Origin: an uncultured Alphaproteobacteria bacterium
GTDB taxonomy: Bacteria; Pseudomonadota; Alphaproteobacteria; RF32; CAG-239
NCBI GenBank assembly: GCA_904501925.1
Contig: CAJGCO010000004.1
Span: 5,593-69,592, forward strand
Length of the DNA: 64,000 nt
Reading direction: 5' to 3'
The stretch's first letter is position 1. Every line of letters begins with the position of its first letter. Shown in pieces: positions 452 to 47,025 of this stretch. The notes beneath the pieces were generated by a model that had not been told where the DNA came from, made no database searches, and was given only the letters and a program-made list of their open reading frames with translations. Made by a program: the position numbers and the translations under genes.

Positions 452-502
452 AAAAATAAAATTACGCTTAAAGAGTAGCACATATTTTGCACTACTCTTT
501 AA
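452..502 (-). terminator. rho-independent terminator downstream of virD4
   Basis: An 11-bp inverted repeat, 468-478 (ttaaagagtag) with 492-502 (ctactctttaa). On the minus strand it is followed by GCGUAAUUUUAUUUUUU. Confidence 0.55.
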
Positions 503-536: not shown

Positions 537-2765
537 CTATTCATCTTCTAATTCATAATCAATATTTTCTTCTGCGTTTGGATCATAATCAATACCTAAT
601 TTTGATAGAATATCCTCGCTTTCTGTTGAGCGCTGAGCAACAATCCAATCTGGCACCCAAGGTGAGTGTGGTAATTTGGCTAAAGCTAACATTTGTTTAT
701 CAAGATAAAAACGAGGAGCATCTGCCATAATTGGAGTTTCGATTGAACCTTGCATCAAAACAACTTGTTTTAACATAGGCAAACTTAAAAGTGCATTAGA
801 GCTGATTGCTGACACACCTTGGAGTTGATAACTAACGTTTTTAGCAAATGGGTTAAATTCTTTATTTAAGCTACCTTCATTTCTTGAGTATGATGTTGTT
901 TGAACGGTTTTATTACCAATCATTTTAGAGAAACGTTCGGCTGTTTGCTCGTTATTTTGTGATAAAATTACTTTACAAGCAGTTGTTGAGATAACTGTCT
1001 CTAAGTCGTCTTTACCATATTTACCAGAAATTTGGCCTAAGTCTTGTCCGATGAGCAGATATGACACTTTCTGACCACGACCTACGGCAGGACCATCAAT
1101 AACGGCTTTCAATTTAGGCATTTGTGGAAACTCGTCCAGCACGAACAATGTTGGGAATGGCCCCATCTTACCATCTGTTGGGTTAACAAAGTTTGGTGGG
1201 TTTGAAATGAGATATGCACTCATTAAGTCCACAAACACAGCACTAATTGGGTTTAAGGCTTGAGCGTCTGTTTGGTTTACTGATAGATATACGGAAATTG
1301 GTTTCCATTCACCAGTTATTGGGTCTTTCATACCACGCATATCTTTAAAAGTGATATCAGAAAAGCTTGTACGAGCAACCACCGCTGAGTTTTTAAAGAT
1401 ACGAATACCATTAAATGCTGTTGATAACACAGAACCACGTTCTTTATCTGGTTTTGCACTTAAACCACTAAGCTCGGTTACGCAACGACGAGAATAACCA
1501 TAGTCGTTTGCCTCATTAATAGCATCATCTAATAAATCACGCATAAGGTCTGCCATAGCAGCCATTTGGTCACCTTCTTCAAGGCGACGTTTAATTTCGT
1601 TACTTTGTTCAATTTGAGCAGCTGTAATCCATTCCAAAATCATGGCAAGACATGCTTCATGATTTATCCATTTATCTGGAAATGAACGCCATGTACCAAT
1701 TGGAAGATAATTTTCTACAGTTAGGTTGCCACTTTGTAGGTCACTTATTGCACGGGCGGCATTTGCTTTGAAATTACCATTTTGCATTTCTTCATAATGA
1801 CCAATTAATTCTTCTTTATCTTCTTTGGTCATTGAGCCTTCGTATATTTTTTGAATGAAGCGCTCATTTGCAAGTGCTTTTTCACACTTTGATGCAACGA
1901 AGTGTATTAAACCACAGAGAGCACCACGACCAGCTTGTGACCAATACGCATCACCACCACCTTTGGGGTCTTCAACTAGGGTATTACACATTGAGTCAAT
2001 GTATAAGTCTCTGGCAGGACCAGGAGCCGGCAACGCACCGGGAGATAATGGGTTCCAGCTTGGATAATACTCACCTGTTGCTGGGTTATCTTCTTTACCC
2101 CAGTTAATCACAAACACTGGACCAACTTTTGCACGAGCACCTGTTGTTGAGTAACACAACTCTGGTTTGGGGTCGTTTACGATAATACTTAAACCTTCAG
2201 AGTTAAAAATTGTTGGAATCACTACTCCGGCTGTTTTACCGGTACCTGGAGGAGCACAACATAAGGTTGAAAGAGTTTCTTTTAATTTTAATAGTTTACC
2301 TTGGAATTTACCAACAACCATACAGAAACCATCAAAACCAAGAAGAGGCATTCTTTCAATATCTCTTAATGTGGCAATGTGAGCTGAACCATGAACATTT
2401 GATTGGAATTTATATGGACATTTTTTTGCACCAACAATTAACATTATTGGTAGTAATATAAATGGAAGTAATGGAAACCACATGCTTAATCTAAATGAAG
2501 CACCGCTTCTTGCGTATGCAAAGAATCGCCCAAACCATCTTACGTATCTATCATATAATTTTCCAGGATCTGAGATTGTTGCTTGTAAAAATTTTTTTAC
2601 AGCAATCATACTCTCTTTAGAGATACCTTCTTGAATTAAGAATCCTATTGGTTGAGATAAATATATTAACGCAATAAAAACAGCTATTGAAACTAGGGCT
2701 GTTATAGCCATCCATCTAACGGCGTTATCATATTCTTCCCACTCTTTACCTCTTTCTTTTGCCAT
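537..2765 (-). CDS. virD4: type IV secretion coupling protein, VirD4/TraG family
   Basis: 742 aa with two N-terminal TM helices. Walker A is APPGTGKTAGVVIPT and Walker B is TLFVLDEFPQM. The LLIGQDLGQISGKYGKDD and TAERFSKMIGNKTV blocks are typical of the T4SS-DNA_transf family. The C-terminal tail is acidic. Confidence 0.88.
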   Translation of the reverse strand: MAKERGKEWEEYDNAVRWMAITALVSIAVFIALIYLSQPIGFLIQEGISKESMIAVKKFLQATISDPGKLYDRYVRWFGRFFAYARSGASFRLSMWFPLLPFILLPIMLIVGAKKCPYKFQSNVHGSAHIATLRDIERMPLLGFDGFCMVVGKFQGKLLKLKETLSTLCCAPPGTGKTAGVVIPTIFNSEGLSIIVNDPKPELCYSTTGARAKVGPVFVINWGKEDNPATGEYYPSWNPLSPGALPAPGPARDLYIDSMCNTLVEDPKGGGDAYWSQAGRGALCGLIHFVASKCEKALANERFIQKIYEGSMTKEDKEELIGHYEEMQNGNFKANAARAISDLQSGNLTVENYLPIGTWRSFPDKWINHEACLAMILEWITAAQIEQSNEIKRRLEEGDQMAAMADLMRDLLDDAINEANDYGYSRRCVTELSGLSAKPDKERGSVLSTAFNGIRIFKNSAVVARTSFSDITFKDMRGMKDPITGEWKPISVYLSVNQTDAQALNPISAVFVDLMSAYLISNPPNFVNPTDGKMGPFPTLFVLDEFPQMPKLKAVIDGPAVGRGQKVSYLLIGQDLGQISGKYGKDDLETVISTTACKVILSQNNEQTAERFSKMIGNKTVQTTSYSRNEGSLNKEFNPFAKNVSYQLQGVSAISSNALLSLPMLKQVVLMQGSIETPIMADAPRFYLDKQMLALAKLPHSPWVPDWIVAQRSTESEDILSKLGIDYDPNAEENIDYELEDE

Positions 2766-2787
2766 AATACTTCCTCTTTTCTAATAA

Positions 2788-4179
2788 TTATGCTATACTA
2801 TAAATAAGTTTTTTAAGTTTTTCAAATGTTGAAGGATCAACCTTTTCTTCACATGGTTCTATTGATTTTGAGAACAAGCGAATTTCTTTAGGTTCACCTC
2901 TATTTATTCTTGTTACATTTATATCCATTTCATTCCAGATATCAAACATATCTTCTGCATTTATGATTGAACCTGATTGGATAACAACGTATGAAACAAT
3001 TTCAAAATTAAAGTCACCGATGGCTAATTTAGATTTTAATACATCTCGTGCAACATCAACTTTTCTTACAGGAGAAATTCTATGAGAACTCTCTGAGAAC
3101 CACAATGGCTCTTCGTCATTAAATTTTTCTTCATCAGCCAACCATTCACCAACTTCTTTATCAACAAGACATAGCAATATTTGATTTTTTGAAACAGCAA
3201 TATAATCAAGTTTTGTTTTTTTGATAATTGGAGAAGATATAATTTCATAACCTTTTTGCATTAAGATATCAAGCACAGGTGTATGAGATTCTTTAATTTG
3301 TTGTTTTGGCGCTTCTTGTTTTTTCTTTGGAGGTTGAGAATTGTCTTTTTCATGAGCTTTTTTAGGCTTTGCTTGTTCTTTCTTTTCTTGTGGCGCTTTC
3401 TCTATTGTTTTTTCTTCTACAGCATTTTCTGGAGCTTTTTCTACTTTTAATGCTGATGGAATATTTTCATCAAGGCTCTTTTGTGGTTCTTTTTTCTCAA
3501 AATCAAAGTCAAAATCAAAATCATCTTCAGTAAAGTTAAATAAAGCGTGATCAAGAGGTGCTTCTTGTTTTTTCTTAGCTGGTTGATATGATGATTGAGC
3601 ACCTTTTAATGATGAAGGTTGAGTGTTTATATTTGATTTTAACAATACTTCTGATGGTAATTGTCTTTTAGAGGGGGCTGCAATAGGAGCTGATGTAGCA
3701 GGATGGGCTTGAGGAGAAACTGTAGATTGAGGCTGTTGTTGAGGCTGAACAACTGCTCCCTGATTTGTTATTTGTCCGTCTTTTTTGATTACAGCTACTT
3801 TTTTAATTGGCTCAACATTACTGATGCTTGCTCTTTTTTTAACAACAGGAGCTTTGCGTTTCAATGTTATTGCTCTGAATAAATATATTGGACTTAGAAG
3901 AGTATCTCTTAAGAACTTTTTCCATTTTATTACACACATTCCATACCATCCAAAAATCCACAAAGGGATACTACTGATTAAGATGATATAAAATACTAAT
4001 TCAGAATTAGAGACAACCTCACCACTATTCCACTTCTCTACGAGGAGAGCCCAGTGTCTTCTTAGGAAAATATCAAAATGCCAATTAATTAACAAAACCA
4101 CTCTAATACCATCTATAAAGACTATGCTCCATAGGTAACCAATTATAAGAGTTTTTATTATTATTAGAAATGGTTTCAA
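2788..4179 (-). CDS. hypothetical membrane protein: N-terminal 3-TM module, long K/E/P/Q-rich disordered linker, C-terminal NERD-like (degenerate PD-(D/E)xK-like) domain
   Basis: 463-aa ORF lying 22 bp upstream of virD4. The N-terminus is paralogous to the 163-aa neighbour. The C-terminal layout KLDYIAVSKNQILLCLVDKEVGEW...SPVRKVDVARDVLKSKL...IVSYVVIQSGSII follows the NERD pattern. The function is an inference. Confidence 0.75.
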   Translation of the reverse strand: MKPFLIIIKTLIIGYLWSIVFIDGIRVVLLINWHFDIFLRRHWALLVEKWNSGEVVSNSELVFYIILISSIPLWIFGWYGMCVIKWKKFLRDTLLSPIYLFRAITLKRKAPVVKKRASISNVEPIKKVAVIKKDGQITNQGAVVQPQQQPQSTVSPQAHPATSAPIAAPSKRQLPSEVLLKSNINTQPSSLKGAQSSYQPAKKKQEAPLDHALFNFTEDDFDFDFDFEKKEPQKSLDENIPSALKVEKAPENAVEEKTIEKAPQEKKEQAKPKKAHEKDNSQPPKKKQEAPKQQIKESHTPVLDILMQKGYEIISSPIIKKTKLDYIAVSKNQILLCLVDKEVGEWLADEEKFNDEEPLWFSESSHRISPVRKVDVARDVLKSKLAIGDFNFEIVSYVVIQSGSIINAEDMFDIWNEMDINVTRINRGEPKEIRLFSKSIEPCEEKVDPSTFEKLKKLIYSIA

Positions 4180-4234
4180 TGTTTTCTCCCTTTTTTGCCT
4201 TTCCTATATTATAATGGGATTAGTTAATAAGTAA

Positions 4235-4726
4235 TTATTTTTTTTCGTTTTCCTCTATTTTTACAGAGATTAGTTGACGGATACTTTTTGTTGTATTTGA
4301 GTTTGCTAACACATCTCCTTTTTCTTTGAGTTTATCAGATATAATTTCATCTATATCACCAGTTTTTGCTCCTAAATTTTTTATAACGATATGTACATCA
4401 TCCATTGGCTCTGGAGCGTTAAATTTGCGATATAGTTTATTAATCGGTTTTGTTAAAGTTGCCCAAAATCCTTTTTTATACAACTTTGCTGTTATATAAA
4501 AACCCAAAACAGGAAAGATTGCCATTAAAAACAACAAGCTACAATCTTTAAATGTTTTAAAAACACCGCCCCTTTCCCAGAAAGAGTACATTGCTTTGTA
4601 GGATTTAACATTTAATATATTAAAACTCCAAATGACTTTGAAAACATGGAAGTAAACAAAAATTAAGAACAAAAATACTGTGCAGAATATTGCTATGTAC
4701 CTTAAGGCCTTTTTCATTTTTTTCAT
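4235..4726 (-). CDS. hypothetical small membrane protein (same membrane module as the 463-aa neighbour)
   Basis: 163 aa, hydrophobic N-terminal half. Shares the W.F.I / W..G.V / P..G.Y / K.F / PI..L[FY]R...AP pattern with 2788-4179. Starts 3 bp after the stop of the upstream gene. Confidence 0.72.
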   Translation of the reverse strand: MKKMKKALRYIAIFCTVFLFLIFVYFHVFKVIWSFNILNVKSYKAMYSFWERGGVFKTFKDCSLLFLMAIFPVLGFYITAKLYKKGFWATLTKPINKLYRKFNAPEPMDDVHIVIKNLGAKTGDIDEIISDKLKEKGDVLANSNTTKSIRQLISVKIEENEKK

Positions 4727-4729
4727 GTT

Positions 4730-6397
4730 TTACCTACCTGAGTAAAATTGTCTCATAAAGCCTGCAACATCATTTGACAATTTAATGTTGTTAAACTCTA
4801 GAGGAACCCCACTAGCTGGAGCTTCTTCTCTATCTGCTGCTGCTAATACTTTTCTAACAGCGCTCTTACACCCTTTTTCATCATAAGTTTTTGATTCTTC
4901 TAAGAAATCTCTAGCCTTCATTATTTCATCTGCTAGATTTTTGGTATATTTTGTACCTTCAGCTAAACCTTCCTCTAATGATGAAGCGCCTCTACAAATT
5001 TCCATAAAGTGAGAAGTTATCATTCTATAATCATCAGTAGCGCCTTTATGTATTGCTTGTGCTATATAAGAAGGATCATTTTTAGGAGTTTCTCTAACTT
5101 CTTTCATTTGCTCTCTAACGCCAGCAATAAACTCATCTGATAATGTACCTTCATTTAATACTATTGAATCTTTAATTTTGGTAATTGATGTGCGCATACT
5201 ATTACTGCAATCATCTTCACCGGCAATTAATGTATTCATTTCGTTTAATTGATTAACTAAATCTTCTTTTTTAACAGGTAGAGGAGCATCGTTTATTTTT
5301 TTGAAAAACTCCATATCCTCTCTAAACCTATCACCAAGACCCTCAGTCATCACCAAGTTATTTAAATTAGCAAATTCAGTTTTTATTGTAGCTCTTGAAT
5401 CTGTGTTTTCTGGATCAGATAAAGCAGCTTTTAGCCTGTTTAAAGCCTCATTTGTACCATCTACACCTGTTCGCCCCTCATTTGCTTGTAGCATTTGATC
5501 AATTTTCTGTAATGCTTCAGCTTTAGGATCTGGCTCTTTTTGCTCTTGAGAATATCTTACTAAATCATGATTGAAAGCGTTCATCTTTTCTGTTACTTCT
5601 GGAGAGTATTCAACACTCTTTAATCCTGACATAATATCTAAAGTTGCCTTACAAACAGCCAATCTTGTGAAATCTTTTTCTTTTCTATATACTGCCTCTA
5701 TCATATTTGGTACTTTTTCATAAAGGCTTAACCTCTTGGTGTCTTCAGTTTCAACACCTCTCTCTCTATCTGCGCGTCCAGCTCTTACCATTGCAACCAG
5801 ACTTTCAAAATTATCTGGCGCTGAAACTCCTTCTGGCCACACAGGCGCTTCACCTCTAAGAACTTTATCAATATTTTCTGCAGTTACAGCATATTCATTT
5901 AAAAGTTTATTTTTATTTGTTTTCAAGTCTTTATCCATTTTTTCGAAAACTTTTTCGCCGATTTGATAATAATCTTTTTTAGATTCTTCAGCTGCATTAT
6001 CTGAAAACAACGCAAAATGGCATAGATTAAGGGCAAAATCTACACTTTTGTTTAACAGCCAATCTGCAGAATGAACAAAAATTTCATTCCACAAAAGATC
6101 CATAATTCCGTTACTCTTACCAGTAGAAGAATCTATTTTTGACTTTTCTGGTTTATCTGGAACAGATCTCTTTTCTTTTGGAGGCGCTTTTTTGAAATTA
6201 CCATATGCATCTGAAATACCTAATTCTGCACCGACAAGATTGTTGAGATTTTCATCACCAAACTCTTCTGGTGTAATTATTGTATTATTTTGAGTTCCTG
6301 GTGTCTCTTGTGAGTTATTTTGAACATCTGGTGTCTCTTGTGAGTTATTTTGAACATCTGGTGTCTCTTGTGAGTTATTTTGAGTATCATCAACCAT
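4730..6397 (-). CDS. hypothetical acidic, mostly helical protein with an N-terminal QNNSQETPDV tandem repeat
   Basis: 555-aa ORF in the operon with virD4. No family recognised. The C-terminal tail is basic (FMRQFYSGR). Confidence 0.78.
   Translation of the reverse strand: MVDDTQNNSQETPDVQNNSQETPDVQNNSQETPGTQNNTIITPEEFGDENLNNLVGAELGISDAYGNFKKAPPKEKRSVPDKPEKSKIDSSTGKSNGIMDLLWNEIFVHSADWLLNKSVDFALNLCHFALFSDNAAEESKKDYYQIGEKVFEKMDKDLKTNKNKLLNEYAVTAENIDKVLRGEAPVWPEGVSAPDNFESLVAMVRAGRADRERGVETEDTKRLSLYEKVPNMIEAVYRKEKDFTRLAVCKATLDIMSGLKSVEYSPEVTEKMNAFNHDLVRYSQEQKEPDPKAEALQKIDQMLQANEGRTGVDGTNEALNRLKAALSDPENTDSRATIKTEFANLNNLVMTEGLGDRFREDMEFFKKINDAPLPVKKEDLVNQLNEMNTLIAGEDDCSNSMRTSITKIKDSIVLNEGTLSDEFIAGVREQMKEVRETPKNDPSYIAQAIHKGATDDYRMITSHFMEICRGASSLEEGLAEGTKYTKNLADEIMKARDFLEESKTYDEKGCKSAVRKVLAAADREEAPASGVPLEFNNIKLSNDVAGFMRQFYSGR
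6286..6390. repeat. 30-bp tandem repeat (about 3 copies) inside the 555-aa gene
   Basis: The unit ggtgtctcttgtgagttattttgaacatct is identical at 6301-6330 and 6331-6360. A third copy matches for about 25 nt from 6361. A partial copy lies before 6301. The repeat encodes QNNSQETPDV x3. Confidence 0.92.
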
Positions 6398-6463
6398 TTC
6401 AAATCTCCTAAAGGTGTTTATTCTGCTATTATATCATAAAAACATACGTTTGTCTACTTTAAA

Positions 6464-7654
6464 TTATACTTTCAGATTTTTTATAAACTCGCCTATTTTT
6501 CGGTTATATTTTATTCCATCTTCTGGGGTTACTTTAATGAGACCAAAGAATTTAGCCTTAATTTTATCAAATTGAATTGGCGTAAACATAGCTGGATTTT
6601 TTATTAAAGCTTCAAAAGCTCCTTTAGGGTCTTTTTGAGCTGCTTTGAAATAATTGTTTATAAGTTTTTCTGCATCTATTGGGAATTTTTGAGCTTTAAT
6701 CTTTTCGATAAAAACCAATCTTCTTTTTTGCATCATCTGGTATTCTTCATATAATTCTTTTTTTATCTTGTTTTTTTTGATTACTTCTTTCATTTGCTCA
6801 TATTGTGATTCACATATTTCAATGTTTATCAATATTTCTATATATGAAATAACTACAAGTTGCATATCTGTATCATTTAGAGATGATGCAAAATCTAAAA
6901 ATTCTTCATCGGTTGCATTTTTGTTTAATCTTTTCATGTTTTCTGGATCATATTTATTTAGCGCATCCCATCCATCTAACAAAAATTGAGCAATTTTTTT
7001 GCCAACACTTGGTTTGTAGTTTGGCTTTAGCATATCATCATTATAATCTGTTTGTGGGGTTTTGATTTTTTTTCTTTGAGTTATAGCTATTATTCCATCT
7101 TTAAAGTTTAGAATAGCTCTAGCTAATTCAGCCTCTTCTTGTTTTAAATCTTTGTTTAATTCATCTACATCAATATTAGATGTTGGTTGTTTAGTATTTG
7201 GCGAGGATGATGTTATTGTGGAATCTAACGTCGCTGATGTGGTTTGGGATGATGTTTGTGGGGTTAAGAAACCATCTAAACCAGAAGACTGCGCCTCTGA
7301 TGGAGACTGGGTTGTTAAAAAGCTGTCTAAACCAGACGATTGCGCCCCAGATGAAGGCTGAGTTGTTAAAAAGCTATCTAAACCTCCAGCTGCTTGGTTA
7401 GGTGTAGCATTTGAAGGTGATTGAGATAAAAAGCTATCTAAACTATCTTTTTTAGAAGGTTCAAAGAAACCATCTACAGTATCACTTGTGTCACCATTTA
7501 TAAATTTACTTAACAATCTTGAGAACTCTGTTTCAATATCTGTATTTTCAGAAGATTGAGGTTGAGATGGTTTGAGGTCCTCTTCTTTTTTTAGTGGAGT
7601 GGATGATGTATTTGCACTTAAAAAACTATCTAAATTATCTAGTTCATTTACCAT
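6464..7654 (-). CDS. hypothetical protein: N-terminal S/T/Q/P-rich region with 5-6 LD[S/G]FL motifs, and a C-terminal helical domain
   Basis: 396-aa ORF and first gene of the virD4 operon. No family recognised. The C-terminal tail is basic (NRKIGEFIKNLKV). Confidence 0.78.
   Translation of the reverse strand: MVNELDNLDSFLSANTSSTPLKKEEDLKPSQPQSSENTDIETEFSRLLSKFINGDTSDTVDGFFEPSKKDSLDSFLSQSPSNATPNQAAGGLDSFLTTQPSSGAQSSGLDSFLTTQSPSEAQSSGLDGFLTPQTSSQTTSATLDSTITSSSPNTKQPTSNIDVDELNKDLKQEEAELARAILNFKDGIIAITQRKKIKTPQTDYNDDMLKPNYKPSVGKKIAQFLLDGWDALNKYDPENMKRLNKNATDEEFLDFASSLNDTDMQLVVISYIEILINIEICESQYEQMKEVIKKNKIKKELYEEYQMMQKRRLVFIEKIKAQKFPIDAEKLINNYFKAAQKDPKGAFEALIKNPAMFTPIQFDKIKAKFFGLIKVTPEDGIKYNRKIGEFIKNLKV
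7235..7387. repeat. 51-bp (17-codon) tandem repeat, 3 diverged copies
   Basis: Encodes GGLDSFLTTQPSSGAQS / SGLDSFLTTQSPSEAQS / SGLDGFLTPQTSSQTTS. The DNA core gttgttaaaaagct[ga]tctaaacc recurs at 7311 and 7362. Confidence 0.85.
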
Positions 7655-7764
7655 TGTTCTTCCTCTTTGTTTTTTTGAACACCAATTTTGATGTATTCTT
7701 TCCTTGATTTTATAGAATATTTTAGTTTATTATATCTGCTAATTAGTGAAAATATATTTAATAA

Positions 7765-8748
7765 GTGAATAAAATGAGCGAAGAATATAATAAAATTTTA
7801 TATACACATCCTGTTGATGAAACAACTACTGGACAAAGAATTGATAAATTTATTGCTAGTGATATTGATGAATTATCGCGATCACAAGTTCAAAAACTCA
7901 TTGAAAAGGGAAATGTTTTTGCTGATGAAGAAATTATTGCTGATAATGATTTTAAAACAAGATTAGGAGATATTTATCAGATAACAATTCCAAACCCTGA
8001 AGAGCCAACTCCTGTTGCTCAAGATATAAAAATTGATGTTTTATATGAAGATAAAGACATTATCGTTGTCAACAAACCTGCTGGGATGACTGTTCACCCA
8101 GGGGCTGGTATAAACACTGGCACACTTGTAAACGCTTTATTGTATCATTGTAAAGATTCCTTATCAGGAATCGGTGGGGTCGCTAGACCAGGAATTGTAC
8201 ATAGAATTGATAAGAACACTAGTGGAATTCTTGTTGTAGCAAAAAATGATATTGCACACAGAGGTTTAGCTGAACAATTTTTTAAGCATTCTATTGAAAG
8301 AACTTATTTTGCTGTAGTTTATGGCGTTCCCTCACCTAAAAAAGGAACTATTGAGGGAAATATTGCAAGAAGTTATTATGATAGAAAAAAAATGGCATTG
8401 GTTCAAAGTGGTGGAAAATCGGCTATTACACACTATGAAGTTATGGAAAACTATAAGAATATTGCTTCACTTGTTAAATGTAACTTAGAAACAGGAAGGA
8501 CCCATCAAATTAGAGTACATTTATCTAGTATTGGCTGTCATTTGATTGGTGATGATATATATGAAAAACCTAAAAAGAGTAATATTAATCTTCCTGTTAT
8601 GGAAAAAAAATATGTAAATACCTTTCCAAGACAAGCTTTGCACGCATATTCTTTAGGCTTTATTCACCCTATTACTAAGAAAGAATTGTCTTTTTGTGTT
8701 GATGTGCCTGAAGACATACGAGAGCTAATTGGTGTTTTGAAGAAATAG
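7765..8748 (+). CDS. rluD: 23S rRNA pseudouridine synthase, RluA/RluD family with an N-terminal S4 domain
   Basis: HRIDKNTSGILVVAK catalytic motif, the GRTHQIRVH block and an S4-like N-terminus. The start could instead be the ATG at 7774. Confidence 0.88.
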   Translation: MNKMSEEYNKILYTHPVDETTTGQRIDKFIASDIDELSRSQVQKLIEKGNVFADEEIIADNDFKTRLGDIYQITIPNPEEPTPVAQDIKIDVLYEDKDIIVVNKPAGMTVHPGAGINTGTLVNALLYHCKDSLSGIGGVARPGIVHRIDKNTSGILVVAKNDIAHRGLAEQFFKHSIERTYFAVVYGVPSPKKGTIEGNIARSYYDRKKMALVQSGGKSAITHYEVMENYKNIASLVKCNLETGRTHQIRVHLSSIGCHLIGDDIYEKPKKSNINLPVMEKKYVNTFPRQALHAYSLGFIHPITKKELSFCVDVPEDIRELIGVLKK

Positions 8749-25120: not shown

Positions 25121-25140
25121 TTTCTCCTCCTAAAAAACAA

Positions 25141-25506
25141 GGGCGACCTATAAGCCGAGTTATGTACTTTAATTATAAAGCGATAGTTATTCATCTAGAC
25201 CAAATGTCACCATTTGGCTCAAGCGACCCACCTCTGGAGTGGAGTGGAAACTCTCCGTATAATGGCTAAAAACCACTCTCCTAACTTGGTCTTGCATCAG
25301 ATAGGGTTTACCTTGCCAAAGATATTACTACCTTTGCGGTGAGCTCTTACCTCGCCTTTTCAACCTTGCCAAAATAAATTTGGCGGTAATTTTCTGTGGC
25401 ACTTTCCCTTAGATTTCTCTAGCCAGACGTTATCTGGTATCTTGTTTCCACGATGCTCGGACTTTCCTCACCAATAAAATATTAGCGCAACTATCCGGTC
25501 ACCCTG
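25141..25506 (-). ncRNA. rnpB: RNase P RNA (bacterial type A)
   Basis: The reverse complement contains GAGGAAAGTCCGAGC, AGGGAAAGTGCCACAGAAA, GGTAAGAGCTCACCGC and CTAGATGAATAACT...ACATAACTCGGCTTATAGGTCGCCC. P1 pairing is 5' GGGTGACC with 3' GGTCGCCC. The region is richer in G+C than its flanks. Confidence 0.9.
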
Positions 25507-41887: not shown

Positions 41888-42337
41888 ATGAACAATATTC
41901 CAGAAATTAGAGACATACACATTCCCCAAGGTGTTTCTATTTATCCACTAGCATATGGGTGGTGGGTAATGTTGTTCGTTGGAATACTATCTATTGTTGG
42001 AACATGGTTTATTTTTTGGGCTATTAAAAAAAGTAAAAAATATTACGCACTAAAAACACTAAACAATATACAGGTGTCAGCTATTGTTTCATCGGCTATT
42101 GAGATGTCTGAATTATTAAGAAGAATTTGTAATGTTAAGTATAAAGACGCGAGCTCATTATATGGTAAAGAATGGAGCGAGTTTTTAGTAAATAAAACAG
42201 ATTTTAAAATATCAGAAAAAGCGTTACGCTTACTAATTTTTGCACCTTTTATGGATAAAAACTCAAATGAATATTCTATTGAAGATGCTCAAGAGTTAAA
42301 AGATTTTTGTAAAAACTGGATAGGAGCAAACTTATGA
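41888..42337 (+). CDS. DUF4381-like membrane protein (Bat operon leader protein)
   Basis: IRDIHIP...YPLAYGWWVMLFVGIL TM pattern. ATGA-coupled to the following VWA gene. Confidence 0.62.
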   Translation: MNNIPEIRDIHIPQGVSIYPLAYGWWVMLFVGILSIVGTWFIFWAIKKSKKYYALKTLNNIQVSAIVSSAIEMSELLRRICNVKYKDASSLYGKEWSEFLVNKTDFKISEKALRLLIFAPFMDKNSNEYSIEDAQELKDFCKNWIGANL

Positions 42338-43350
42338 TTGTTATTGCTCATCCTGAATTTTTTTGGTTGTTATTGTTGCCTTTTTTAATGTATTTGTTTT
42401 TTCCAAATACCAAAAGTTATAGCGACATTTCGCTAAAAGTACCTTTTATTGAAGACTTAAAGAAAATAAAGAATGAAGTAAATAATAGATATTTTCCTAA
42501 ACTTAGTGAAAAGTTTTTATTTTCATTAAAAGTTATCTATCTATCTTTGGTGTGGGCTCTTTTAGTTTTAGCAGCAACTCGTCCTCAATTTTTAGGAGAA
42601 CCATTTAGGTTAAAAACAGAAAATAGAGATATTATGCTGGTTATTGATATATCACCATCTATGTTACAAAAAGATTTTTTAATTAAAGATTATAATACTA
42701 AAGACGTTTATATTGATAGATTGACTGCTGTTAAGTATGTTGTTAGTGAATTTATAAAACAACGCAAAAATGATAGATTGGGTTTGGTTTTATTTGGAAC
42801 CAGAGCTTATTTACAGTCGCCTTTAACATTTGATAAAAATGCTATTAATGAAATTTTGCAAAGTACTGATGTAGGAATGGCGGGCAACTCTACATCTATA
42901 GGTGATGCATTAGGACTGGCGCTAAAAAATCTAAAAAACGAAAAAGATAAAGAAAACAAATCAATCATATTACTTTCTGATGGTGAAAACACTGATGGAT
43001 ATTTAAGCATGGCACAAGCTATTGATATGGCCGAAAAAGAAGGGATTAAAATTTATACCATTGGGGTTGGATCTGAAACAGGATTTATGGGCTCCATTTT
43101 TAATATTAGATCTGATGAACTTGATGAAAAAAGCTTAAAAGAGCTAGCTAACAGAACAAGAGGACGCTATTTTAGAGCAACTGATTTAGCATCACTTCAA
43201 CGAATATATCAAGAAATCGATAAACTGGAACCCAAAACAAATGATTCTGATATTGTTCAAGAAAAAAGAGAGTTATTTTATTTACCTGTACTTTTGGCGT
43301 TGTTGTTATCTATTGCTTTAATCTTTTATTTAAAGAGAGGGATCGAATGA
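42334..43350 (+). CDS. batA: VWA domain protein BatA
   Basis: N-terminal TM, then a VWA domain with the MIDAS motif (DISPSM...S...T) and a C-terminal TM. Part of a Bat-type operon. Confidence 0.8.
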   Translation: MIVIAHPEFFWLLLLPFLMYLFFPNTKSYSDISLKVPFIEDLKKIKNEVNNRYFPKLSEKFLFSLKVIYLSLVWALLVLAATRPQFLGEPFRLKTENRDIMLVIDISPSMLQKDFLIKDYNTKDVYIDRLTAVKYVVSEFIKQRKNDRLGLVLFGTRAYLQSPLTFDKNAINEILQSTDVGMAGNSTSIGDALGLALKNLKNEKDKENKSIILLSDGENTDGYLSMAQAIDMAEKEGIKIYTIGVGSETGFMGSIFNIRSDELDEKSLKELANRTRGRYFRATDLASLQRIYQEIDKLEPKTNDSDIVQEKRELFYLPVLLALLLSIALIFYLKRGIE

Positions 43351-45326
43351 TTGAGTTTATTTATAACTTTCATTTTTTACGCCCTTGGGTTTTGTTGTTT
43401 TTAATAATTCCTATTTTTTTGCACATGAAAAAAATAAAAATAAAAGGTGCAAATTCTTCATGGGAAAATATTTGTGATAAAAATCTATTTAAATATTTGG
43501 CTGTTAAGAATAAAAAGTTTAGAAGGAAATCTTTTACAAAGTATGTGTATATTGGTTTGATTTCGGCGACAATAGCAGCAGCAGGTCCGGCTTGGAAAAA
43601 AGTAGAAGCACCGTCTTTTATAATAGAGAATCCAACTGTATTTGTTTTAAGTCTTTCTACTGATATGGAAGTTATGGATGTGAGTCCCTCTCGTCTAGAA
43701 AGAGCAAAGTTTTTTATTAGCGACGTTCTTGATGCTTCAGAACAAGGACAATATAGTTTGATTGCATATTCTGATGAGCCGTTTAATATTACTCCCATAA
43801 CAGATGATGCTGAACTCATAAAAAATATTTTACCACAAGTAACTGCCGATATTATACCTGGACAAGGTGATAGACTAGACAGAGCTATTGATTTTGCAAA
43901 AAGCAGGTTAAAGCAATCTGGTTTTTCTGATGGAAATATTATAATTTTAGCCTCTGATATAGAAGAGAGATTTAACGAAGCTCTTGGACAAGCTTCCAGA
44001 CAAGGATTTGAAAAATATAATATTCATGTAATTGATTTTTCATACGATGGAAATGAAAAACTAAAGCTTGTTGCTGAAAAAGGAAAAGGTCTTTATGTTT
44101 TTGCTAAAGATGGAGATGTAACTATATTGACAGATAGAATTAGGATTACAAATGAAGAAAAAACTAGAGCTAGCAAAAACTTTCGTTCTGTTTACTTGGA
44201 TTTTGGATATTATTTGTTAGCAATACCTATGTTTTGTCTTTTGATGTTTTTTAGAAAAGGAATTTTGATTTTATTTTTTGTTTTGTTTGCTCAGAATGCT
44301 TATGCTGGATTTTTTACAAACAGCAATCAAGATGCATTAAGACTATTTAATAATAATGAATTTGAAAAAGCCCTAAGTTTGTTTAAAGATAAAAACTGGA
44401 AAAGTGTTACATTGTATAAATTGGATAGACTAGAAGAAGCATTAAAAGAAATTGAAAATGAAAAATCAGAATTATCTATATATAATAAAGGGGTTATACT
44501 TACAAAATTATGTAAGTATGAGGATGCTAAAAAGATGTTTAATCAGGTTCTAGAAACCAATCCTAATAATAATGACGCTAAGTACAATATAGAAAAATTA
44601 AATGAATTGTTTTTAAAAGCAAAAGAAGATCCTTCAATTTTGAAGTGTGACAATCAACAACAAAACAACAAAAACAATCAAGATAACAACCCAAATAATG
44701 ATAAAAACAATGAAGATAAAGATAATCAAAAAAATCAGAATAAAAATTCTGATAACAATGATAAACAAGATAATAACAAAGAAGAAAACCAGCAAGAACA
44801 AGACAATAAAGATACTCAAGATAATCAAAACCAAAAATCTGACAACAATAATCAAGACAAAGAACAGCAAAACAATAAAAATGACAACAACAACCAACAA
44901 CAAAAAGAAGAAAATCAGCAAAATAATAATGAGGAAAAAAACAAAGAATCTCTTAACAATGATGAAAATAAGAACAATCAAAAACAAGATAAGCAAAATA
45001 GTGCAAGTAATGAGAAAAAAGAAAAAAATAATGATAACGAAAATAGTAAACAGAAAGCTCCTATGGACAATGAAAATGGTGAGGGTGAAGAACAAAATAA
45101 TGATAAAAACGAAGAAAATAAAAATGATGGTAATAGTGAAAGAGAGCAACAACAACAGCTTGAGAATATAGGTGCGAAAACAGGTGATAAAGATGAAGAA
45201 TATGACGAAAAAGCTCTTATGATGGAACGAAAATACAGAGAAATCCCAGAAGATATTGGGGGATTATTGAGAGAGTTTATAAAAAAAGAATATATGAAAG
45301 ATAGGTATAAAAATGAAAATATTTAG
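43347..45326 (+). CDS. batB: VWA + TPR fusion protein (BatB/BatC-like) with a long N/Q/K/D/E low-complexity region
   Basis: N-terminal TMs, a VWA-like domain (FVLSLSTDMEVMDVSPSRLERAK) and a mid TM. Also TPR units (NKGVILTKLCKYEDAKKMFNQVLETNPNNNDAKYN), then a low-complexity segment of about 170 aa. Confidence 0.75.
   Translation: MIEFIYNFHFLRPWVLLFLIIPIFLHMKKIKIKGANSSWENICDKNLFKYLAVKNKKFRRKSFTKYVYIGLISATIAAAGPAWKKVEAPSFIIENPTVFVLSLSTDMEVMDVSPSRLERAKFFISDVLDASEQGQYSLIAYSDEPFNITPITDDAELIKNILPQVTADIIPGQGDRLDRAIDFAKSRLKQSGFSDGNIIILASDIEERFNEALGQASRQGFEKYNIHVIDFSYDGNEKLKLVAEKGKGLYVFAKDGDVTILTDRIRITNEEKTRASKNFRSVYLDFGYYLLAIPMFCLLMFFRKGILILFFVLFAQNAYAGFFTNSNQDALRLFNNNEFEKALSLFKDKNWKSVTLYKLDRLEEALKEIENEKSELSIYNKGVILTKLCKYEDAKKMFNQVLETNPNNNDAKYNIEKLNELFLKAKEDPSILKCDNQQQNNKNNQDNNPNNDKNNEDKDNQKNQNKNSDNNDKQDNNKEENQQEQDNKDTQDNQNQKSDNNNQDKEQQNNKNDNNNQQQKEENQQNNNEEKNKESLNNDENKNNQKQDKQNSASNEKKEKNNDNENSKQKAPMDNENGEGEEQNNDKNEENKNDGNSEREQQQQLENIGAKTGDKDEEYDEKALMMERKYREIPEDIGGLLREFIKKEYMKDRYKNENI
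44650..45160. repeat. low-complexity A-rich coding tract (N/Q/K/D/E codons)
   Basis: About 0.5 kb made almost entirely of AAT/AAC/CAA/AAA/GAT/GAA codons. It generates spurious long ORFs in another plus-strand frame and on the minus strand. Confidence 0.85.
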
Positions 45327-47025
45327 ATTTTTTATTTTAACTTTATTTGTTTTATTTTCGGGTAGTGTGTTTGCTGCTGAAGTTAGTATATCTGTTGATA
45401 GAAAAAAGGTTAAAGATGGAGATACTGTTTATCTTACAATTACTTATACTGGAAATAGCTCTAAATCTCCGGATTTAACTTCTTTACAACAAGATTTTAA
45501 TATTGTCTCTAGTTCGACTTCATCTAGTTACACATATATTAATGGTATTGATCGTAAATTAACGAAATGGACAATCGGAATTGTTCCAAACAAAAAAGGC
45601 GTTATAAGAATTGCACCAATTGAAGTTGATGGTATTGTTTCTAATTCGCAACAAATAGAGGTGGAAGACACAACAGATATGGTTTATTTTGGCAACAATC
45701 TCGTTAAAATTGAAGCAAAGATTGATGCTGAAGAGGTTTTTATACAACAACAACTTAATCTTTGGATAAATATTTATGATAGTGTTGGAATTAATGACGG
45801 TTCAATTAATTTAACTGATGAAGATAAAGAAGCTTGGGTAATTAAACCTCTTATGGATAAACCAGCGGTTACTGAACATTTTGCTAATGGAAAACATTTT
45901 AATATTATCAGTTTAAATTATGCTTTATATCCACTTAAAAGCGGTAAATTAAAATTGCCACAATTTATTTTTAATGGTCATTTTATTACTAGTGGTGGAT
46001 TTAAACTTCCAACATTTGATGATGATTTCTTTAATCTTAATGCAACTTTTAATAGTGTTTTTGGAGCAAAAAATCATATAAAAACCAAAACAAAGGCTGC
46101 GTATATTAATGTTAAACCTGTTTTATCAGGTACGTTAAAAAAAGATTGGATAGCTGTTAAAGATTTAAAATTAAAATCTGAACTTTCTGATTTTTCAAAA
46201 ATACGAACAGGTGATGCGTTTAGTAGAAAAATTGAAATTACAGCAACAGGACTACCCAAAGTGTTGTTTCCTGAAATAAAGTTTGATGATATAGATGGAT
46301 TAAAACAATACCCAGATAAACCTGAATACATTGAAGAGGTTGTTAATAATAATATTGTAACAAAAGCTATTTTTAATACGACATATATACCAACTAAAAG
46401 CGGAGAAATTAATATACCCAAAGTTGATATTAGTTGGTTTAATACTGAAAAAAATGACATACAAACATCTTATTCAAATAGTCATAATATCGATGTATAT
46501 CCTAATGACAATTTAAAGAAACAACAAGAACAACAAGTTGCACAAAAAGCAACTGAAATAGTTGAGCAGAATATTGATAAAACAAATAAAGAAGAGGAAG
46601 ATATAGAACAACCAAACAAATATCTTTCTAAGGAAGTTTTTATTGTTTTGGGTGTTTTTTTATTAGTTTTATTGCTTGTGTTTATTTTGTTTAGAAAAAA
46701 AGATTTTTCTAAAAAGAGCATTAATTATAAAGCGCAAGTTGTTAAAGCTATTGAACAGCATGATTTAGGACTAGCAAAGCAATGTATTCTGAGTTGGGCT
46801 AAAGATAAGTTTAACGACAATACGATACAAAACTTTAGAGATATATCTGATATTGTTTGTAATGAAGAATTTAATGAACAATTAAACAAACTAAATAAAG
46901 CTATTTATTCTAGTGAGGATATTTTGTTTGATAGTAAAAAGTTCATTGAAATATTTTTAAAAACTGATAAAATTGAAATTAGAAAAGATAAAAAAATAGA
47001 AATTTTACCAAATCTTTATGATTAG
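45313..47025 (+). CDS. batD: BatD-like protein
   Basis: Signal peptide (SGSVFA), a long beta-rich ectodomain, a TM near residue 440 (VFIVLGVFLLVLLLVFILF) and a C-terminal cytoplasmic tail. Overlaps batB by 14 nt. Confidence 0.7.
   Translation: MKIFRFFILTLFVLFSGSVFAAEVSISVDRKKVKDGDTVYLTITYTGNSSKSPDLTSLQQDFNIVSSSTSSSYTYINGIDRKLTKWTIGIVPNKKGVIRIAPIEVDGIVSNSQQIEVEDTTDMVYFGNNLVKIEAKIDAEEVFIQQQLNLWINIYDSVGINDGSINLTDEDKEAWVIKPLMDKPAVTEHFANGKHFNIISLNYALYPLKSGKLKLPQFIFNGHFITSGGFKLPTFDDDFFNLNATFNSVFGAKNHIKTKTKAAYINVKPVLSGTLKKDWIAVKDLKLKSELSDFSKIRTGDAFSRKIEITATGLPKVLFPEIKFDDIDGLKQYPDKPEYIEEVVNNNIVTKAIFNTTYIPTKSGEINIPKVDISWFNTEKNDIQTSYSNSHNIDVYPNDNLKKQQEQQVAQKATEIVEQNIDKTNKEEEDIEQPNKYLSKEVFIVLGVFLLVLLLVFILFRKKDFSKKSINYKAQVVKAIEQHDLGLAKQCILSWAKDKFNDNTIQNFRDISDIVCNEEFNEQLNKLNKAIYSSEDILFDSKKFIEIFLKTDKIEIRKDKKIEILPNLYD

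Follow-up and report, generated by a model that had tools for sequence, protein, structure and literature searches.

An orphan VirD4/TraG-family coupling ATPase in a conserved core-chromosome operon of uncultured gut and rumen Alphaproteobacteria

The operon described here lies at the left end of a 64,000-nt stretch of contig CAJGCO010000004.1 (assembly GCA_904501925.1), from an uncultured alphaproteobacterium; this whole stretch is referred to below as the window. The last of its five closely spaced minus-strand genes encodes a type IV coupling protein (T4CP) of the VirD4/TraG family. To our knowledge, the only role understood for coupling proteins is that of substrate gate in conjugation and effector-secretion machines. 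The T4CP of the window is fixed in a core operon that has no type IV secretion system (T4SS) genes nearby and that supplies its own partners, which suggests recruitment to a job that has yet to be described. Our favoured reading, put forward tentatively, is that the operon belongs to the core chromosome, is inherited vertically and has a domesticated T4CP at its centre, as a module that would be self-contained at the inner membrane.

The five open reading frames (ORFs) run end to end from nt 7654 down to nt 537 with spacers of 66, 3, 55 and 22 bp, and they diverge from an rluD-like gene on the right, as an earlier, preliminary description of this DNA had set out. That description ended the operon after the fifth gene, a boundary that has to be given up, as a sixth gene, p249, overlaps the T4CP stop codon. 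The genes and the principal parts of the T4CP are as follows.

6464..7654, minus strand: p396, ORF of 396 aa
4730..6397, minus strand: p555, ORF of 555 aa
4235..4726, minus strand: p163, ORF of 163 aa
2788..4179, minus strand: p463, ORF of 463 aa with a TTG start
537..2765, minus strand: T4CP, ORF of 742 aa
1..544, minus strand: p249, the first 181 codons of a 249-aa ORF that exits the left edge of the window
2415..2726, minus strand: transmembrane domain (TMD) of the T4CP, from hydropathy and alignment
2211..2255, minus strand: Walker A of the T4CP, from its motif
1695..1874, minus strand: insert of ~60 aa (residues 298-357) in the all-alpha-domain (AAD) region of the T4CP, from alignment
1119..1151, minus strand: Walker B of the T4CP, from its motif
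540..629, minus strand: acidic C-terminal tail of the T4CP, from its charge
7655..7764, no strand: divergent intergenic region of 110 bp between the rluD-like gene (plus) and p396 (minus), from the ORF coordinates

By its sequence the 742-aa protein is a bona fide but divergent ATPase of the T4CP family with intact motifs. It matches Pfam PF02534 T4SS-DNA_transf at 2.4e-54 (185 bits against a cut-off of 20), PF12696 TraG-D_C at 8e-22 and PF10412 TrwB_AAD_bind at 7e-17. The N-terminal anchor consists of two hydrophobic transmembrane (TM) segments at about residues 14-45 and 91-117, as judged from hydropathy. The Walker A motif, APPGTGKTAGVVIPT, has a GTGKT core whose K177 is invariant across relatives, and in the Walker B motif, TLFVLDEFPQM (D544, E545), D544 is nearly invariant across the same proteins. 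Pfam, hydropathy and alignments thus bear out the family, the two TM helices and the intact Walker motifs that had been assigned to this gene. The protein nevertheless misses all of the NCBIfam cut-offs for VirD4/TraG/TraD (best 148 bits vs 250 for the CD1115 family, and 125 vs 728 for VirD4). A phmmer search of PDB sequences gave no match, and in a profile search the nearest solved relatives were H. pylori Cag5 (8.5e-8) and, marginally, TrwB.

Conservation of the locus was assessed with one genome per species, a scan in which at least 583 relatives matched and of which the best 80 loci were analysed. All 80 come from metagenome-assembled genomes (MAGs) of gut or rumen Alphaproteobacteria with titles such as Ca. 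Scatocola, 'Acetobacter sp. 46_36' and 'Azospirillum' CAG types, a lineage that we take to correspond to the GTDB order RF32. NCBI taxonomy places Ca. Scatocola in Rhodospirillales, and the Holosporales/Rickettsiales setting in which the preliminary description had placed the operon is therefore abandoned. Synteny of the block holds in 80 of 80 species as far as the contigs reach, with rpoH and rluD diverging from p396, a slot of 427-730 aa in the position of p555, p163, p463 and the T4CP, always in this order. Identity to the window is 67-89% for the T4CP, 60-89% for RpoH, 53-78% for RluD, 32-60% for p463 (the C-terminal domain being nearly invariant), 34-54% for p396 and 24-49% for p163; the proteins of the p555 slot are essentially unalignable apart from one short conserved motif. 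The conservation of the T4CP matches that of rpoH. The window and its 92-kb contig carry housekeeping genes only, which places the operon in the core chromosome, and its GC content is in line with that of its surroundings.

The absence of VirB, relaxase and Dot/Icm genes in cis, as originally claimed, holds up against both the contig annotation and a search for VirB genes. No VirB, Trb, Tra, relaxase, Dot or Icm gene is found in the window, or in about 80 kb of its contig, and tblastn of that contig with VirB2, 3, 4, 6, 8, 9, 10 and 11 gave no match. The preliminary description had left room for a virB or relaxase cluster just beyond the left edge of the window; what lies there is the remainder of p249, followed by a convergent ligA and infC, with no virB or relaxase gene.

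The same picture extends to more distant relatives. An exhaustive HMMER search returned 5,575 relatives of the T4CP, 256 of them at E<1e-30. The best annotated are VirD4s of megaplasmids (Erythrobacter aureus, Sphingosinicella, Microvirga, Thalassospira), which share 31-35% identity over the nucleotide-binding domain (NBD) and AAD and sit at the end of canonical virB2-virB11 clusters; in another relative cluster VirB11 lies directly upstream of the T4CP. Every closer chromosomal relative inspected (28-53% identity) is an orphan in a housekeeping neighbourhood, and these closer relatives carry a translationally coupled upstream partner, in some a p463 orthologue and in others a pentapeptide-repeat protein. 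At 53% identity (P0241), the p463 orthologue overlaps the T4CP start, and homologues of the ~208-aa and SUKH-like proteins described below lie downstream. The relative at 47% (P0242, labelled a Rickettsiales MAG) adjoins ruvB and ybgC-like genes, that at 43% (P0245) has an rluX gene and a gene for an rpoH-like sigma factor in its vicinity, and those at 28-40% (P0244, P0250, P0286) have the gene for a pentapeptide-repeat protein upstream in translational coupling. Counterparts of p396, p555, p163 and p249 were not found beside the outgroup T4CPs.

The ~60-aa insert (AN[DE]YF...D..L...Y..M...NYLPIGxW) is present in both orphan sub-clades and is lacking in the VirB-linked clusters; its signature occurs in roughly 24-36 of the best 150 cluster representatives at 50% identity. 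A metagenome scan with this signature yielded 63 further loci (27-40% identity, GC 38-59%, housekeeping neighbours), in all of which a pentapeptide-repeat gene immediately precedes the T4CP gene if the contig extends that far. At least 35 loci of the pentapeptide-linked sub-clade (L094, L121-L161; e.g. L147:8674-13684) have rarA/mgsA as the next gene after the T4CP. Around the ~155 clade loci at which the T4CP stands in a usable context, ~2.5 Mb of flanking DNA (+-10 kb) holds no VirB2-11 gene and likewise no MPF (mating-pair formation) or relaxase linkage, and the same method detects the VirB clusters at the nearest plasmid and VirB11-linked relatives, which served as positive controls. Homologues of the p463 and p396 C-terminal domains are absent from 72,556 PLSDB plasmids. 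A phage-borne origin was rejected in view of the conservation of the locus, and no member of the T4CP clade was found in 2.9 million viral contigs. The insert-marked T4CPs apparently form a deep, vertically inherited chromosomal clade, as far as their sequences and neighbourhoods indicate, and our literature searches found no description of such an orphan T4CP clade.

Pentapeptide-repeat folds are DNA mimics, as in Qnr and MfpA. The pentapeptide-repeat partner in the sister sub-clade has 404-437 aa (L092:8772-10001, L093:8691-10004, L094:225-1439, L147:8674-9945); in L092 and L093 its gene runs into the start of the T4CP gene, whereas in L094 a gap of 18 nt separates the two. One of these loci also has a 599-aa ORF with no Pfam match immediately before the pentapeptide-repeat gene (L147:6824-8623), possibly the equivalent of the p555 slot. 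Some clade members are extended to ~1000 aa, and no Pfam domain was detected in their C-terminal extensions.

None of the four partner proteins of the T4CP had been assigned to a family in the preliminary description. This still holds for p396, p555 and p163, and Pfam, NCBIfam and PADLOC scans gave no confident homology of any partner to a housekeeping family, but the C-terminal domain of p463 can now be placed. This protein begins with a TM hairpin (residues 2-105, nt 3865-4176) that has a nearly invariant loop, NWHFDIF..HW..KWNSG, continues with a disordered, basic and Pro-Gln linker that carries the invariant acidic motif HALFNFxxDDFDxDFDF (nt 3493-3549), and ends in an alpha/beta, NERD/PD-(D/E)xK-like domain (residues 299-463, nt 2791-3285). 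In an AlphaFold2 (AF2) model built on 30 orthologues this domain has a pLDDT of ~85-90, and its top PDB matches in Foldseek are PD-(D/E)xK nucleases (E 5e-3 to 0.2, probability up to 0.96), among them the R2 endonuclease domain, EndoMS, N.BspD6I and FokI. Pfam NERD (PF08378) scores the window protein at E 0.015 and 16.2 bits, under the gathering score of 22.1, and matches 15 of the 30 orthologues at E<=0.1 (best 3.4e-5). The model and these matches give moderate support to a restriction-endonuclease-like fold. In the motif D325...D340-K341-E342, mapped onto what we take to be the NERD consensus, D325 and D340 are invariant and the position of the canonical Lys is Glu in 30/30 orthologues, so the canonical D...(D/E)-x-K triad is absent from all of them. 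The catalytic competence of the domain is uncertain because of this invariant replacement.

The second membrane protein, p163, is a two-TM hairpin whose juxtamembrane segment is basic and whose cytoplasmic tail is short, and it is paralogous to the N-terminal hairpin module of p463 (blastp 1e-12), which agrees with the paralogy noted originally. It was detected by tblastn at 69 of the 80 related loci, and its slot is filled by an ORF of 157-179 aa in nearly all of them.

The two soluble partners, p396 and p555, are acidic (pI 5.0 and 4.8), bear repeats and end in net basic tails, all of which had been correctly read from the sequence at the outset. The disordered N-terminal half of p396 carries LDSFL five to six times as well as a conserved DDEFxxLLNxFI helix; residues ~160-360 are predicted with confidence to form an all-helical domain (pLDDT >90 for ~170-310), for which no PDB fold (best E 0.75) and no Pfam or NCBIfam family was found; and the conserved basic C-tail reads GxFLKKLKV. 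The N-terminus of p555 repeats QNNSQETP three times. Its slot is hypervariable, with proteins of 427-730 aa at 12-21% identity in a multiple alignment across 30 species, and a Pfam scan of all p555-slot orthologues was empty. The sole motif conserved across species is DIIxYxxxxWxLxxxxW, and the short tails (mostly ...GGR or ...GR) have a net charge of +2 to +5. The C-tail of the T4CP is strongly acidic in the window lineage (-11 to -14 over the last 30 residues) and is not so in the outgroup T4CPs, and it is in the window lineage only that this tail co-occurs with basic-tailed p396 and p555. These charges agree with recognition through the C-terminus without proving it, and support for such recognition is circumstantial. 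The same is true of the adaptor-plus-cargo module that the preliminary description had proposed, to which the conserved p463/p163 hairpin and the opposition of the acidic T4CP tail to the basic p396 and p555 tails lend circumstantial support.

Short acidic-aromatic motifs occur in three of the operon proteins, namely DDFDFDFDF in p463 (residues 211-229, window 3493-3549), LDSFL, five to six times, in the N-half of p396 (window 7100-7640) and IDYDPN..IDYELEDE in the T4CP tail (window 540-629). By analogy they resemble docking peptides of the SSB-tail type, which suggests that p463, p396 and the T4CP might have a binding partner in common.

The sixth gene, p249, starts at nt 544 and overlaps the T4CP stop by 8 nt; its full 249-aa product is encoded on an identical 92-kb metagenome contig. 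It is predicted to be a polytopic inner-membrane protein with several hydrophobic segments and has motifs that are invariant across species (PYLPLFMGF..KYL.FFE.YM and RPY.AW); a Pfam scan of all p249 orthologues was empty. Within its codons lies the hairpin that had been taken for the left end of the operon.

468..502, minus strand: hairpin with a 15-bp stem, then GCGUAAUUUU, 35 nt 3' of the T4CP stop and within codons ~14-26 of p249

The hairpin itself is confirmed; it is conserved and its stem covaries, but it falls within the p249 ORF and does not mark the end of the operon cleanly. Of the 24 loci of the p249-bearing subgroup, 22 have a hairpin at this distance from the T4CP stop, with compensatory changes, and in those loci the p249 frame stays open through it. 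Across the 24-locus alignment 86% of the cells are paired vs 30-55% in slid controls, both sides change in 6 of the 15 pairs, and the covariation score was reached by 0 of 500 shuffles. Relatives that lack p249 have a classical terminator straight after the T4CP stop. The hairpin is probably a leaky terminator or attenuator that closes the conserved operon core and gates a variable accessory gene.

What follows the T4CP gene does vary. Among the 80 loci p249 is present in 33 and a pair of genes for proteins of ~208 aa (dn208) and ~156 aa in 18; the remaining loci have neither, and some of their contigs end early. The ~156-aa protein is SMI1/KNR4 (SUKH-1)-like at E 2e-4, under the gathering score (L036:12233-13304 and 17 more loci; L089:12265-13334). 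dn208 has an invariant MWEWSN start and an HNH-like motif (H-x-K-x-P..GG..NL..L..H..H..IH) that was read by eye and has neither Pfam nor PDB-profile support. From these sequence features dn208 and the SUKH-like protein are a possible toxin-immunity pair. At the closest outgroup locus a type IV pilin-like ORF follows the T4CP module (L089:13456-13803), with an N-terminus of ...GRSMVEMLGVLAIIGVLS recognised by eye only. On the other side of the operon, 42 of the 80 loci (e.g. L036:5292-5573) have a gene for a ~93-aa membrane protein of the DUF6476 family (Pfam E 1.7e-7) immediately before the p396 orthologue; the window lacks it.

If the operon is the domesticated module that we favour, its parts could be arranged as follows. 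The T4CP ATPase would form the usual membrane-anchored ring, and p463 and its short paralogue p163 would insert beside it by their conserved two-helix hairpins, so that a nuclease-like domain of the NERD/PD-(D/E)xK type would come to lie on the cytoplasmic side together with an acidic FDxDF motif. p396 and p555 would be cytoplasmic acidic clients or regulators that bind, by their basic C-termini, the acidic ATPase tail peculiar to this lineage. Such a module would resemble a coupling complex of the DotL-DotM type, with a receptor ATPase, membrane adaptors and clients, and would carry out ATP-driven substrate handling or translocation at the inner membrane without being part of a co-encoded T4SS. 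We infer that the substrate is probably DNA or a nucleoprotein, because of the nuclease-like partner, the DNA-mimic type of the sister partner and the recurrent ligA, ruvB and rarA neighbours. The broader proposition is one to which we give somewhat less credence, namely that the insert-bearing orphan T4CPs as a whole are a T4SS-independent machine, a conjugation ATPase that was domesticated early and that, with a NERD-like or pentapeptide partner, handles DNA or nucleoprotein at a housekeeping level. Its function may possibly be linked to replication or recombination, given that rarA is downstream in one sub-clade and ligA and ruvB are nearby in others.

Several observations weigh against a T4SS-independent module. 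We know of no T4CP that works without a T4SS channel, and the TMD, with W77 and P98 invariant in the orphan-clade alignments and largely kept in VirB-linked relatives, is common to canonical VirB-linked T4CPs, which fits a retained channel contact. The D-K-E at the (D/E)-x-K site of p463 leaves the nuclease activity on which part of the proposal leans uncertain. The basic C-tails and the hypervariable, 'effector-like' slot look like features of secretion substrates, as does the possible toxin and SUKH-immunity pair 3' of the sister-locus T4CPs.

These same features are what one would expect if the protein were a conventional T4CP serving a T4SS encoded elsewhere in the genome, with p463 and p163 as adaptors and p396, p555 and the sister protein dn208 as secreted substrates. 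The rvh system of Rickettsiales is a known case of a scattered T4SS architecture. The T4CP anatomy of the window protein is complete, its ATPase motifs are intact, its TMD is shared with the VirB-linked relatives, and its nearest non-orphan relatives end canonical virB2-virB11 clusters. Basic C-tails are found on p396 and on the proteins of the hypervariable slot, and a gene for a SUKH-like putative immunity protein stands with its partner 3' of the T4CP at 18 sister loci and at the outgroup locus. Moreover, a pentapeptide-repeat protein co-precipitates with RvhD4, the T4CP of Rickettsia typhi (PMC11077975). Even so, we consider this explanation, the main rival of the domesticated module, rather unlikely, though it deserves to be taken seriously. 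In about 155 loci that span the insert-bearing clade as a whole, VirB genes are missing from the +-10 kb around the T4CP, whereas known systems usually encode the T4CP together with MPF genes or a relaxase. A specialised role is suggested by the conserved, clade-specific insert and by the absence of the partners from plasmids, and the T4CP is as conserved as rpoH at a fixed housekeeping locus.

Another explanation is that the operon encodes a membrane-associated defence or conflict system, in which a T4CP-like translocase would capture foreign DNA-protein complexes and a tethered NERD domain would cleave them, with p555 and the 3' genes the product of an arms race. This would suit the NERD/PD-(D/E)xK-like domain of p463, the hypervariable slot and the variable accessory genes 3' of the T4CP, including the SUKH-like one, as would a weak mad8 match of the T4CP in PADLOC (E 0.0017). 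Against it, PADLOC gave no meaningful match for any of the six operon proteins, and nothing at all for the five other than the T4CP. The fixed position, vertical inheritance and housekeeping-level conservation of the operon in every species examined are also unlike those of defence islands, and the nuclease domain departs from the canonical catalytic motif, so that we regard a defence function as improbable. Lastly, the decay of an integrated conjugative element (ICE) can leave an orphan T4CP without MPF or relaxase genes, but a functionless remnant of this kind is effectively refuted by the conservation data, as all genes are intact, the T4CP is 67-89% identical at one locus in 80 species with invariant ATPase motifs, no integrase, tRNA or repeat boundaries were found around the operon and the GC content does not deviate.

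The surroundings of the operon are those of an ordinary chromosome. The divergent gene to the right of p396 encodes a PseudoU_synth_2 (rluD-like) protein on the plus strand, starting at nt 7765, and is followed by a gene for an RpoH-like sigma factor. The 110-bp gap between the rluD-like gene and p396 is presumed to be the promoter region of the operon; promoter-like consensus sites were no more frequent across the operon region than in shuffled sequence. An internal promoter in the p396-p555 gap was considered and rejected, since a strong sigma70-like match there ends 1 nt before the p555 ATG and shuffles are equally rich in such matches. Elsewhere the contig carries genes for an RND efflux system, recN-like, tgt, dnaJ, lpxC, bamD-like, glmM, the RNase P RNA, exbBD-like, radA, tyrS, rlmN and cca, with parAB and gidAB just past the right edge of the window. 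The sole Rfam match in the window is the bacterial RNase P class A RNA (25135-25506, minus strand, 283 bits), and there are no tRNA genes across its 64 kb. A BatA-D-like cluster (DUF4381, VWA, VWA-TPR, BatD) at 41888-47025 on the plus strand, followed by tsaE, an HPr-kinase-C-like gene and mlaEF, represents ordinary envelope and housekeeping context.

Orphan T4CPs of one clade are thus a fixed core-genome component of uncultured Alphaproteobacteria that are abundant in the gut and rumen, with matches in at least 583 species-level genomes. Their conservation exceeds that of many housekeeping enzymes, and they have obligate partners that were seen on no plasmid. The operon as it stands is not new in kind, because its ATPase belongs to a known family; were independence from a T4SS to be confirmed, the system would be new in kind. 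If the T4CP works without a T4SS, it would be the first with a cellular, non-mobile function, and the debated solo translocation of substrates across the inner membrane by a T4CP would become directly testable. If it serves a distant T4SS, the operon would provide a new adaptor set and a hypervariable slot of candidate effectors in a major unstudied gut lineage.

Compared with known systems, the window T4CP is like VirD4, TraG and TrwB (e.g. Cag5 and the TrwB of R388) in its two-TM anchor, its NBD with Walker A and B, its AAD region and its Pfam matches, and differs from them in falling under the NCBIfam cut-offs, in its ~60-aa insert, in its chromosomal location and in the lack of adjoining VirB or relaxase genes. 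The VirD4s of alphaproteobacterial megaplasmids lack the insert and are linked to virB2-virB11, and the p463 and p396 domains occur on no PLSDB plasmid. The C-terminal domain of p463 is like members of the NERD (PF08378)/PD-(D/E)xK superfamily in its fold matches and in the matches of 15/30 orthologues; unlike them, it is fused to a TM hairpin, is always paired with a T4CP, has the D-K-E motif and scores below threshold in the window.

T4CPs and FtsK belong to one ATPase superfamily, and in E. coli the gene order is ftsK-lolA-rarA (L162, 933224-939337). With rarA downstream of the T4CP, members of the pentapeptide-linked sub-clade occupy an ftsK-like position relative to rarA. The likeness stops there, in that there is no gamma domain and the window T4CP has no adjoining rarA; a BLAST search of the collected loci for an FtsK motor gave no match and no FtsK-type similarity, a result that says nothing on FtsK elsewhere in these genomes.

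A parallel in organisation is offered by the Dot/Icm system of Legionella (DotL, DotM, DotN, IcmSW, LvgA), although there is no sequence relationship and the window locus has no other dot/icm genes. No operon partner matches Dot/Icm families in Pfam or NCBIfam, p463 included, which has no match to the DotM/IcmP models, and the T4CP profile misses the PDB DotL chains at E<=1. The likeness is one of analogy only, in that the T4CP gene is directly preceded by one for an inner-membrane adaptor that has TM helices at its N-terminus, just as icmP/dotM comes before icmO/dotL, and that acidic clients docking on a T4CP C-tail would be a plausible common logic of the two systems.

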